Of a stretch of 64,000 nt of DNA, positions 36,710-37,730 are shown in pieces (position 1 is the stretch's first letter; every line of letters starts with the position of its first letter). The notes beneath the pieces were generated by a model. The model was not told where the DNA came from. It did no database searches and saw only the letters and a list, made by a program, of their open reading frames with translations. The position numbers and the translations under genes were made by a program. This DNA is from Escherichia phage vB_EcoM-Sa45lw. The stretch lies in the sequence record MK977694.1. The stretch is one strand, 5' to 3'.

Positions 36710-36785
36710 TGGTCGAGGCAGTAGGGATCGAACCTACGACCTAGGACTTAGAAGGTCCTTGCTCTTCCTTCTGAGCTATGCCCCG
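36710..36785 (-). tRNA. tRNA-Arg (anticodon UCU)
   Basis: Manual cloverleaf: acceptor CGGGGCA/TGCCTCG, anticodon loop CTTCTAA, T-arm GTAGG-TTCGATC-CCTAC, CCA encoded; 76 nt. Confidence 0.85.
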
Positions 36786-36789
36786 TAAT

Positions 36790-36865
36790 TGGGGTGACCG
36801 ATGGGAGTCGAACCCATGACTACGAGAATCACAATCTCGAGTTCTACCAACTGAACTACGGCCAC
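36790..36865 (-). tRNA. tRNA-His-like (anticodon GUG), discriminator C, no encoded G-1
   Basis: Acceptor GTGGCCG/CGGTCAC, D-arm GTTC-AGTTGGTA-GAAC, anticodon loop TTGTGAT, T-arm ATGGG-TTCGACT-CCCAT, CCA encoded; resembles E. coli tRNA-His. Confidence 0.7.
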
Positions 36866-36979
36866 ATTAATACCTACTCCAACAATCAAGATGTCTTCAC
36901 ACGAAATTAAGAGAAGAGTGATCAGTTCAACCCCTATAATCGCGTCAAGTAGATATTAATGTGACAGTTGTCACAAATT

Positions 36980-37054
36980 TGGCGGACGTGATAGGATTCG
37001 AACCTATAACCAATCGCTTAACAGGCGATCGCTCTGCCATTGAGCTACACATCC
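36980..37054 (-). tRNA. tRNA-Asn (anticodon GUU)
   Basis: Acceptor GGATGTG/CACGTCC, anticodon stem-loop ATCGC-CTGTTAA-GCGAT, T-arm ATAGG-TTCGAAT-CCTAT, CCA encoded; 75 nt. Confidence 0.8.
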
Positions 37055-37058
37055 AAAT

Positions 37059-37145
37059 TGGTGGGGAGTGATGGAGTCGAACCACCCGAGTCGCAATGAC
37101 AATGAATTTACAGTCCACACCGCTACCTCTACGGGATAACTCCCC
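37059..37145 (-). tRNA. tRNA-Tyr (anticodon GUA), class II with long variable arm
   Basis: Acceptor GGGGAGT/ACTCCCC, anticodon loop CTGTAAA, variable arm TGTCATTGCGACTCG (cf. E. coli tRNA-Tyr), T-loop TTCGACT, CCA encoded; 87 nt. Confidence 0.8.
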
Positions 37146-37157
37146 TAATTCATAATT

Positions 37158-37232
37158 TGGTGGCCCTGGGTGGAATTGAACCACCATCTGGCGATTATGA
37201 GTCGCTTGCTTGAACCTTCCAGCTACAGGGCC
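37158..37232 (-). tRNA. tRNA with anticodon CAU (T4 tRNA-Ile-type, lysidine-dependent, or Met)
   Basis: Acceptor GGCCCTG/CAGGGCC, anticodon loop CTCATAA, T-arm GGTGG-TTCAATT-CCACC, CCA encoded; 75 nt. Confidence 0.8.
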
Positions 37233-37233
37233 T

Positions 37234-37309
37234 TGGTGCTGATTGACGGAATCGAACCGCCGACCTTCTCATTACAAGTGAGTTGCTCTACCTACTGAGC
37301 TAAATCAGC
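37234..37309 (-). tRNA. tRNA-Thr (anticodon UGU)
   Basis: Acceptor GCTGATT/AATCAGC, anticodon stem-loop ACTCA-CTTGTAA-TGAGA, T-loop TTCGATT, CCA encoded; 76 nt. Confidence 0.85.
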
Positions 37310-37314
37310 AAAAC

Positions 37315-37404
37315 TGGCGGAGGTGATAGGATTCGAACCTATGAATCGCCGGAGCGACTGCCGGTTTTCAAGACCGGTGCATTCAACCACTCTGCCACAC
37401 CTCC
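37315..37404 (-). tRNA. tRNA-Ser (anticodon UGA), class II
   Basis: Acceptor GGAGGTG/CACCTCC, anticodon stem-loop CCGGT-CTTGAAA-ACCGG, long variable arm, T-loop TTCGAAT, CCA encoded; 90 nt. Confidence 0.85.
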
Positions 37405-37406
37405 AG

Positions 37407-37480
37407 TCTCCATACAAGGATTTGAACCTTGGACCTCCTGATCCCAAATCAGGCGCTCTACCAAACTGAGCTACACGGAG
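37407..37480 (-). tRNA. tRNA-Pro (anticodon UGG), CCA not encoded
   Basis: Acceptor CTCCGTG/TATGGAG (two G-U), anticodon stem-loop CCTGA-TTTGGGA-TCAGG, T-loop TTCAAAT; only 2 nt from tRNA-Ser 5' end (dimeric precursor as in T4). Confidence 0.8.
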
Positions 37481-37490
37481 TAAATTAAAT

Positions 37491-37564
37491 TGGAGCGGAT
37501 AATGAGAATCGAACTCACATCATCAGATTGGAAGTCTGAGGTAATACCATTATACGATATCCGC
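37491..37564 (-). tRNA. tRNA-Gly (anticodon UCC)
   Basis: Acceptor GCGGATA/TATCCGC, anticodon loop CTTCCAA, T-loop TTCGATT, CCA encoded; 74 nt. Confidence 0.85.
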
Positions 37565-37569
37565 AAATT

Positions 37570-37656
37570 TGGTGCGAGAAGTGGGACTCGAACCCACAAG
37601 GAAATCATTCCGCAGCATTTTAAGTGCTGTGCCTTTACCAATTTGACCATTCTCGC
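37570..37656 (-). tRNA. tRNA-Leu (anticodon UAA), class II
   Basis: Sequence GCGAGAATGGTCAAATTGGTAAAGGCACAGCACTTAAAATGCTGCGG...CACCA matches remembered T4 tRNA-Leu; 87 nt. Confidence 0.9.
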
Positions 37657-37657
37657 G

Positions 37658-37730
37658 CTGGGAATAAAGGACTCGAACCTTTGCATCCTGGAATCAAAAT
37701 CCAGTGCCTTACCAACTTGGCTAATTCCCA
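37658..37730 (-). tRNA. tRNA-Gln (anticodon UUG), CCA not encoded
   Basis: TGGGAATTAGCCAAGTTGGTAAGGCACTGGATTTTGATTCCAGG... acceptor TGGGAAT/ATTCCCA; abuts tRNA-Leu (Gln-Leu dimeric precursor as in T4). Confidence 0.9.

Follow-up and report, generated by a model that had tools for sequence, protein, structure and literature searches.

The 64,000-nucleotide (nt) stretch of Escherichia phage vB_EcoM-Sa45lw analysed here (MK977694.1), hereafter the window, carries a cluster of tRNA genes on its minus strand at 36710-37730. Our main concern is one of these genes, a tRNA-His with no encoded G at position -1 (G-1), together with the structured spacer that precedes it. Genes were called with ARAGORN on the whole window and with the Rfam covariance model RF00005, which has a gathering score of 29 bits. 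ARAGORN finds exactly 11 tRNA genes, which in transcript order are Gln(UUG), Leu(UAA), Gly(UCC), Pro(UGG), Ser(UGA), Thr(UGU), a tRNA with a CAU anticodon, Tyr(GUA), Asn(GUU), His(GUG), and Arg(UCU). Ten of them score 59 to 74 bits against the Rfam model, with E-values of 1e-11 to 1e-15, and the long-arm tRNA-Tyr, also called by ARAGORN, is matched at 29.9 bits by tRNA-Sec, a model of the same clan. All 11 are genuine tRNA genes. A first-pass annotation of this DNA had assigned the same anticodons and had named ARAGORN as the check on them, and every assignment is recovered. The dimeric-precursor layout it described is likewise present, with gaps of 0 nt between Gln and Leu and 1 nt between Pro and Ser. 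The Asn and His genes are 114 nt apart (36866-36979).

G-1 is regarded as a near-universal histidine identity element. In the phage gene, the two ends read 5'-..AUUAAU|GUGGCCG...CGGUCAC-C-CCA on the minus strand, which gives an acceptor stem of 7 base pairs (bp) starting with G1-C72. The full tRNA is 5'-GUGGCCG UA GUUC AGUUGGUA GAAC U CGAGA UUGUGAU UCUCG UAGUC AUGGG UUCGACU CCCAU CGGUCAC C CCA, and the sequence directly 5' of it is ..GGUAUUAAU. Position -1 (36866) is U, the discriminator is C73, CCA is encoded, and the gene scores 65 bits against the tRNA model. The earlier description of a His(GUG) gene with C73, a U upstream, and no encoded G-1 was therefore correct in each detail. Two features of a canonical bacterial tRNA-His, C73 and the GUG anticodon, are present, while another, an encoded G-1 forming an 8-bp stem, is missing. 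A shifted register in which the first G becomes G-1 was rejected, as it breaks the spacing of the D-arm and shortens the 3' acceptor strand to 6 nt, and no alternative register of this tRNA contains a G-1:C73 pair.

Comparison with known tRNA-His types sets the phage gene apart from both of them. E. coli hisR is ~80% identical to it, and the two have in common G1-C72, U2-A71, G3-C70, C73, CCA, and the anticodon loop UUGUGAU. However, hisR encodes G-1 preceded by a U at -2, keeps 8 bp in its acceptor stem once RNase P has cut, and has G4-C69, whereas the window gene has U at -1 and G4.U69. The tRNA-His genes of alpha-proteobacteria and their phages also lack an encoded G-1 (PMC3064791; PMC5389517). 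That type combines A73 (or U73) and U72 with a co-evolved divergent HisRS, and some members have an 8/4 acceptor/T-arm geometry (PMC3064791; PMC5389517; PMC9976931). In contrast, the window tRNA-His keeps C72, C73, and 7/5 geometry, and its hosts have a canonical G-1-dependent HisRS. C72 and C73 are found in 20 of 20 phage genes, and none has the A73/U72 arrangement.

The missing G-1 had been treated in the first-pass annotation as a peculiarity of one gene, but it is the rule among phage tRNA-His genes. The spacer and tRNA-His are at least 99% identical in 185 phage records, and copies of the segment with 80-92% identity are found in Karamvirus, Jiaodavirus, and Klebsiella/Enterobacter phages, where the rest of the tRNA cluster is different. 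The His gene by itself is also present in Winklervirus, Moonvirus, Kanagawavirus, Gualtarvirus, Chrysonvirus, Vequintavirinae, and mycobacteriophages. In all of these U precedes G1, as it does in T5. A pattern scan of IMG/VR returned 22 genuine tRNA-His genes within the tRNA clusters of large phages; U-1 is encoded in 21 of them and G-1 in one. The gene of Vibrio phage D479 also has U-1, and that of Burkholderia jumbo phage FLC9 has G-1. Altogether, U-1 is found in 22 of 24 distinct phage tRNA-His gene bodies, from T4-like, rV5-like, and T5 phages, a vibriophage, and a mycobacteriophage. The exceptions are FLC9 and the IMG/VR contig L154, and C73 is present in all. When flanks are included, position -1 is T in 25 of 26 non-redundant His sequences compared with 157 of 285 (55%) other tRNAs at the same loci, while position -2 of the same 26 sequences varies (A 16, C 5, T 4, G 1). 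As a control, a looser IMG/VR pattern scan, which mostly picks up the tRNA-His genes of hosts or halves of att sites at the borders of prophages, shows G-1 in ~43 of 46 full-length host-type genes. The FLC9 gene (locus L166) is host-like and is unannotated in its record. Contig L154 is 52.9 kb long and carries 22 tRNAs, one of which ARAGORN calls tRNA-Pyl(CUA).

Selection on the phage genes was assessed on an alignment of 20 distinct U-1 tRNA-His genes, with slid partners and 500 shuffles as controls. Cloverleaf pairing is kept in 99.8% of cells, compared with 30-51% for slid partners, and compensatory double changes are seen at 13 of 21 cloverleaf pairs. The covariation score is 0.536 against 0.179 in shuffles, and none of the 500 reached the observed value. 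G1-C72, U2-A71, G3-C70, and C73 are invariant in all 20 genes. This pattern indicates that phage tRNA-His is under strong structural selection with a conserved HisRS-facing end and is a functional tRNA, not a pseudogene, and the earlier suggestion that the gene might be non-functional is not supported. The fourth acceptor pair, G4-C69 in E. coli hisR, is G.U in 15 of the 20 genes, A-U in 4, and G-C in 1; a weak 4:69 pair goes along with the U-1 design.

The 114-nt spacer between the Asn and His genes, in which the first-pass annotation had overlooked a conserved hairpin, is itself structured. It folds at -32.7 kcal/mol (z = -4.4) into a small hairpin followed by a branched domain that is closed by a 13-bp helix. 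Across 7 sequences from 5 genera the closing helix is 14 bp long, and all 98 cells are paired compared with 40-55% in slid controls. Double changes occur at 4 pairs, and the observed covariation score was reached by 0 of 500 shuffles. G.U pairs make up 14 of the 98 cells, which makes the structure specific to the tRNA-sense strand and argues for an RNA instead of a DNA palindrome. A reading as a DNA inverted repeat or terminal inverted repeat is disfavoured on the same grounds, as each of these pairs is an A.C mismatch on the opposite strand and the arms covary and are not conserved. The 3' strand of the helix terminates at -1 of tRNA-His (-1/-2 in the window), and at each of the Straboviridae and Vequintavirinae loci compared the hairpin stops between -1 and -3. 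The stem consensus AUUAAUAUUCAUUC...GAGUGAAUAUUGAU persists across lineages, while the interior ranges from a tetraloop, in the 31-33-nt spacers of Kanagawavirus-like contigs, up to lineage-specific branches of ~90 nt. The element travels with tRNA-His across genera. A mycobacteriophage and one metagenomic contig (L156) have U-1 with a gap of just 1 nt and no hairpin, so U-1 is independent of the hairpin.

Several other identities for the spacer were considered and rejected. It is not a degenerate tRNA or a member of a known RNA family, as it yields no ARAGORN call and no Rfam match at E ≤ 1. Nor does it resemble a promoter, since it holds a single weak plus-strand sigma-70-like match, fewer than in shuffles, and the TTGAC motif is not conserved in Jiaodavirus. 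The only open reading frames (ORFs) are mechanical ones that run across tRNA genes, and blastn detects no similarity to T5 RNAIII, RNAI, or RNA1 or to T4 rnaC or rnaD. In position, however, the spacer is like a phage stable spacer RNA, as it fits exactly between the CCA of tRNA-Asn and G1 of tRNA-His and has a covarying closing helix. The closest parallel is in T5 (NC_005859), where RNAIII (30284-30389, 106 nt, with a 12-bp closing stem) lies directly 5' of tRNA-His (30206-30283). The record lists RNAIII as a stable RNA whose function is unknown, and no sequence similarity to the window spacer is detectable. The tRNA-His of T5 shares U at -1, G1-C72, C73, and CCA with that of the window, but the T5 stem ends at -4 and the tRNA differs in its D-arm and in having G4-C69. 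None of the annotations in the phage records inspected marks the 114-nt spacer or remarks on G-1.

Some further observations concern the folding of such spacers. A GUCAC motif 5' of the closing helix (window 36955-36961, and Karamvirus) is complementary to positions 1-5 of tRNA-His, GUGGC (36861-36865). The leader helix could extend over the 5' acceptor strand through this motif, as it does in the minimum free energy fold of leader plus tRNA, a joint fold which misfolds the tRNA body and says nothing on processing. The motif is absent in Jiaodavirus, Moonvirus, and Winklervirus. In Klebsiella phage Roth01 and Enterobacter phage Entb_43, all long spacers between tRNA genes fold with closing stems formed by their 5' and 3' ends (Asn to Asp, 244-253 nt; Asp to Met, 128-161 nt; His to Ser, 96 nt; Ser to Ile, 66 nt), and some contain small annotated coding sequences. 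One Entb_43 spacer resembles T4 rnaC, and its continuation is called a 96-nt 'tRNA-Phe' by ARAGORN. Because other long spacers of Karamvirus and Jiaodavirus also self-close, structured excised spacers may be common to these operons in general, with T4 rnaC and rnaD as comparable cases.

The remainder of the cluster is best understood by comparison with other Tequatroviruses. A megablast search with 36600-37850 against 50,697 phage records matched 972, of which 235 had one match spanning at least 80% of the query. The top matches are Escherichia phage JY01 (99.8%) and wV7-like Tequatroviruses (~98-99%). Phage wV7 (HM997020) has the identical 11 annotated tRNAs in the same order at 98.9% identity, with Trna.2/3/4 upstream of the cluster and a small hypothetical ORF downstream. 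These matches place the window in a wV7/T2-type Tequatrovirus and indicate that its tRNA cluster is in itself ordinary, already known and annotated; over 200 genomes of phages have these 11 tRNAs in their annotation. The published T2L/RB1/RB3-type region, in which tRNA-Met(CAU), Tyr, Asn, and an Arg isoacceptor replace a T4 segment, shares with the window its gene order, the missing segB, and a tRNA-Ser ending in CCAG (Brok-Volchanskaya et al. 2008, PMC2330249). The window accordingly shows no segB in the cluster, the CAU tRNA, Tyr, Asn, and then Arg after Thr, and rnaD and rnaC downstream. SegB cuts T2L DNA preferentially in the tRNA-Asn gene (PMC2330249). The T2L paper makes zero mentions of tRNA-His (PMC2330249), and the hairpin-His module is therefore polymorphic within Tequatrovirus.

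T4 (NC_000866) differs from the window in the middle of the region. Its order is Gln-Leu-Gly-Pro-Ser-Thr-Ile, segB, Arg, rnaD, and rnaC, with no tRNA-Tyr, Asn, or His, and the flanking Trna.2-4 and e.x genes are the same in both phages. The two sequences are 95.5% identical over a stretch that starts upstream of Gln and reaches into the 5' portion of the CAU tRNA; they match again at 98-99% over rnaD and rnaC, and everything between differs. The first-pass annotation had described the cluster as the T4 set plus Tyr, Asn, and His; this needs revision, because the CAU tRNA (47/75 positions) and tRNA-Arg (48/76) are not the T4 alleles, and T4 tRNA-Arg has no blastn match anywhere in the window. 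There are six T4 orthologues, Gln (65/73), Leu, Gly, Pro, Ser, and Thr, and Tyr, Asn, and the hairpin-His module are additions without T4 counterpart. The earlier reading of the CAU tRNA as Ile(CAU) fares better, as the best E. coli matches are genes annotated tRNA-Ile (81.6% over 75/75 nt), and AUA codons are used 3.8 times as often in window ORFs as in the host. This tRNA most likely has a tRNA-Ile2-type body and reads AUA, with lysidine conversion by TilS and charging by IleRS predicted. The features of the locus are collected in Table 1.

Table 1. Genes and other features of the tRNA region in the window, in transcript order
Feature	Coordinates	Strand	Remarks
tRNA-Gln(UUG)	37657..37730	-	T4 orthologue except for anticodon arm; abuts tRNA-Leu (0 nt)
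tRNA-Leu(UAA)	37570..37656	-	87/87 identical to T4
tRNA-Gly(UCC)	37491..37564	-	74/74 identical to T4
tRNA-Pro(UGG)	37406..37480	-	same sequence as T4; CCA not encoded; 1 nt before tRNA-Ser
tRNA-Ser(UGA)	37315..37404	-	82/87 vs T4; CCA encoded, end ..CCGCCAG as in T2L (PMC2330249)
tRNA-Thr(UGU)	37234..37309	-	73/76 vs T4; position 40 is G, C in E. coli thrU
CAU tRNA, most likely tRNA-Ile2 (lysidine type)	37158..37232	-	47/75 vs T4, other allele
tRNA-Tyr(GUA)	37059..37145	-	absent from T4
tRNA-Asn(GUU)	36980..37054	-	absent from T4; G39/G41, vs U39/C41 in E. coli asnT
Structured spacer (leader RNA)	36866..36979	-	small hairpin ~36960-36975, branched RNA 36866-36960
tRNA-His(GUG)	36790..36865	-	G1-C72, C73, CCA encoded; no encoded G-1
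tRNA-Arg(UCU)	36710..36785	-	48/76 vs T4, other allele; C1-G72, G2-C71, G3.U70, A73
116-aa ORF, phrog_3355	36341..36691	-	between tRNA-Arg and rnaD, same orientation
rnaD homologue (T4 stable RNA species 2)	36227..36344	-	99% identical to T4
rnaC homologue (T4 stable RNA species 1)	36082..36220	-	98.6% identical to T4
Intrinsic-terminator-like hairpin and T run	36008..36031	-	

The hairpin at 36008-36031 probably marks the end of the tRNA/stable-RNA transcription unit. The 116-amino acid ORF matches phrog_3355 (E = 6.7e-52), a family of unknown function; no Pfam domain scores above threshold in it, and a match to DUF2654 is sub-threshold. The tRNA-Gln differs from that of T4 in the anticodon arm alone, CUGGA-UUUUGAU-UCCAG in the window against UAGCA-CUUUGAC-UGCUA in T4, and resembles the anticodon stem-loop swaps that have been discussed in connection with evasion of nucleases. 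The acceptor stem of tRNA-Arg(UCU) contains G2-C71, G3.U70, and A73, which is the E. coli alanine identity set except for pair 1:72. The same C1-G72/G3.U70 stem is seen in tRNA-Arg(UCU) of T5, an Aeromonas phage, and a Karamvirus-like contig, and Serratia phage CHI14 has A3-U70. A segment ~8 kb from the cluster (45878-46129, plus strand) has 69% DNA identity to part of T4 segB, a GIY-YIG homing endonuclease.

Two general roles for the extra tRNAs had been put forward in the first-pass annotation, compensation for codon usage and replacement of host tRNAs cleaved by anticodon nucleases. The codon-usage check it suggested was made by comparing 82 mechanically called window ORFs (17,504 codons) with 37 long ORFs taken from a 50-kb sample of E. 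coli K-12. The codons of the eight core tRNAs (UUA, GGA, CCA, UCA, ACA, AUA, AGA, and CAA) are used 1.9-11.6 times as often as in the host, with AGA at 11.6x. Asn and Tyr codons are enriched 1.77x and 1.95x, but His codons stand at 0.79x host usage (16.9 against 21.2 per 1000). Codon supply thus fits Asn and Tyr and does not explain His, so that this first proposal agrees with two of the three additions.

The second proposal has published precedent for Tyr and Asn and not for His. Septu cleaves tRNA-Tyr, and infection is restored when T6 tRNA-Tyr is overexpressed or SegB-amplified, while T4, which has no tRNA-Tyr gene, cannot escape the system (PMC13096335). The PARIS nuclease AriB cuts tRNA-Lys(UUU), Thr(UGU), and Asn(GUU) between positions 40 and 41, and T5 variants of tRNA-Lys, Thr, and Asn rescue infection (PMC12409363). 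Replacement of cleaved tRNAs by phage copies is documented for these tRNAs of T6 (PMC13096335) and T5 (PMC12409363), and tRNA-His(GUG) appears only among the probable minor products of AriB cleavage (PMC12409363). In the window, tRNA-Asn has G39/G41 (U39/C41 in E. coli) and tRNA-Thr(UGU) has G40 (C40 in E. coli), at the AriB 40|41 site. These differences from the host are suggestive only. Tyr, Asn, and His are also three of the four tRNAs with a UQU loop that are substrates of colicin E5 (PMC1635277, PMC1669751). The fourth type, Asp, is carried along with the other three by the clusters of Karamvirus and Jiaodavirus.

How a tRNA-His without G-1 could serve the phage may be pictured as follows. 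In a T2/RB/wV7-type operon, one minus-strand transcript would contain the 11 tRNAs, the leader RNA, the small ORF, and the stable RNAs rnaD and rnaC. Its processing would fall to host enzymes: RNase P would form the 5' ends, endonucleases and exonucleases would form the 3' ends, and tRNA-Pro would be completed by the CCA-adding enzyme. A canonical RNase P cut 3' of U-1 would leave a mature tRNA-His with a 7-bp acceptor stem and no G-1. Such a cut is expected because U cannot pair with C73, a U is conserved 5' of G1, and position -2 is mostly A; in hisR, the U at -2 likewise sits 5' of the actual cleavage site. The host HisRS would charge this tRNA through C73, the conserved top of the stem, and the anticodon, with high phage expression offsetting a reduced efficiency. 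As His codons are used at 0.79x host frequency, the benefit would not be codon matching but a host-independent reserve of tRNA-His for when host tRNA is depleted or cleaved, and Tyr and Asn would act likewise. The leader hairpin would act in processing or insulation and be set free as a small stable RNA, in the manner of T5 RNAIII and T4 rnaC/rnaD. Taken jointly, cleavage 3' of U-1, less efficient histidylation of a G-1-less tRNA, and a host-independent reserve form the explanation we prefer, tentatively and with close to an even chance of being right. Bearing indirectly on histidine acceptance, a review table of T5 tRNA species lists both tRNA-His1 and tRNA-His2 (PMC4810235), and the T5 gene likewise has U-1 and C73.

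Several points weigh against this explanation. We know of no defence system that depletes tRNA-His specifically, and a helix that reaches -1 would be an awkward leader for RNase P. When G-1 is lost, charging by E. coli HisRS becomes more than 100-fold less efficient. Among the major determinants for HisRS is the 5'-phosphate at -1 (PMC4357726), and a G-1-less tRNA should therefore be a poor substrate. The conservation of U-1 (25/26), well over the 55% of other tRNAs, could also mean that U-1 is retained in the mature tRNA, and the T5 GenBank record draws tRNA-His as 78 nt with U-1 included.

These last points lead to an alternative in which RNase P, or a nuclease guided by the hairpin, cuts 1 nt further upstream. 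Mature tRNA-His would then keep pU-1 opposite C73, and the correctly placed 5'-phosphate would suffice for efficient histidylation. It has been reported that G-1 mainly positions the 5'-phosphate and makes few base-specific contacts (PMC9976931, PMC4357726), and the near invariance of -1 beside a variable -2 is in keeping with a base that stays on the tRNA. The hairpin end at -1 to -3 in Straboviridae and Vequintavirinae and the T5 record, in which RNAIII ends just before the 78-nt tRNA-His, also agree with a cut at this point, but the T5 annotation may merely follow convention, and the mycobacteriophage and L156 genes have U-1 at a 1-nt gap with no hairpin. In hisR, it is the G-1:C73 pair that shifts E. 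coli RNase P to -1, as is well established (references in PMC5389517), and U-1 cannot form such a pair with C73. Moreover, canonical +1 cleavage prefers a U at -1, and the base at -2 is in most cases A and not U. We consider retention of U-1 somewhat unlikely. Addition of G-1 after transcription by a Thg1-like 3'-5' nucleotidyltransferase would solve the same problem, as the retained C73 could template a G, and some bacteria have Thg1-like proteins (PMC3061083). The same U-1/C73 design is present in unrelated phage families, however, which makes this route very improbable. To our knowledge, E. coli and other enterobacterial hosts have no Thg1 or Thg1-like protein, and T4-like, rV5-like, and T5 phages, the vibriophage, and the mycobacteriophage have no Thg1-type enzyme in common.

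One further explanation would relieve the tRNA of the need for efficient charging. Poorly charged, it could serve as a decoy or sponge against a nuclease or toxin with specificity for GUN/QUN loops or tRNA-His, or as a regulatory uncharged tRNA. Tyr, Asn, and His all have GUN anticodons in a U33-G34-U35 loop, they are three of the four colicin E5 substrates (PMC1635277, PMC1669751) with Asp completing the set in Karamvirus and Jiaodavirus, and there is no extra demand for His codons. Under Septu, overexpressed phage tRNA-Tyr was itself cleaved and partly suppressed degradation of host tRNA-Tyr (PMC13096335). On the other hand, invariance of pairs 1-3, C73, and the anticodon while other stems drift is the pattern of a charged tRNA, no anti-phage system of the E5 type is known to target T-even phages, and tRNA-His species are entered in the review table of T5 tRNAs (PMC4810235), which together leave a decoy role unlikely. 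That all three extra tRNAs, His included, only match phage codon usage is quite improbable. The enrichment of Asn and Tyr codons (1.8-2.0x E. coli) and of those of the eight core tRNAs (1.9-11.6x) is what this explanation predicts, but His codons run the other way, and the comparison rests on a 50-kb E. coli sample and mechanically called ORFs. The idea of a decaying or non-functional tRNA-like remnant could draw on the missing principal HisRS identity element and on the polymorphism of the gene among Tequatroviruses, as T4 is without it and it is unlisted for T2L and for the tRNA-rich region of T6. The idea is effectively refuted by the 99.8% paired cells with 13 compensated pairs across genera, and the 65-bit score and the identity of at least 99% for gene and leader in 185 records also speak against it.

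The tRNA cluster itself adds nothing new, while the facts of the tRNA-His sequence are solid and general. In the literature searched we found no description of a U-1/C73 or G-1-less tRNA-His in enterobacterial phages or of the leader hairpin, although older T5 literature might contain some, and a comprehensive review of tRNA identity makes no mention of a U-1/C73 phage tRNA-His (PMC9976931). It is possible, though we hold it doubtful, that phage tRNA-His forms a distinct and apparently undescribed class, with U-1 in place of G-1, C73 and the stem top kept, and mostly a leader hairpin or stable RNA in T4-like, rV5-like, and T5 phages. Its members would be either efficiently histidylated without G-1, by a retained pU-1 or other compensation, or used in a non-translational anti-defence role, and the hairpin would be devoted to the maturation of this tRNA. 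Despite the G-1 rule, a U-1/C73 tRNA-His is kept under clear purifying selection in phages of E. coli, Klebsiella, Vibrio, Mycobacterium, and others. This may point to a G-1-independent route to His-tRNA in canonical hosts, to a new rule of RNase P site selection that involves the leader hairpin, or to a non-translational, decoy-type use of a phage tRNA, all of which would bear on research into tRNA-targeting anti-phage defence. Should E. coli accept a G-1-less tRNA-His, this would also be of practical interest for orthogonal-tRNA engineering.

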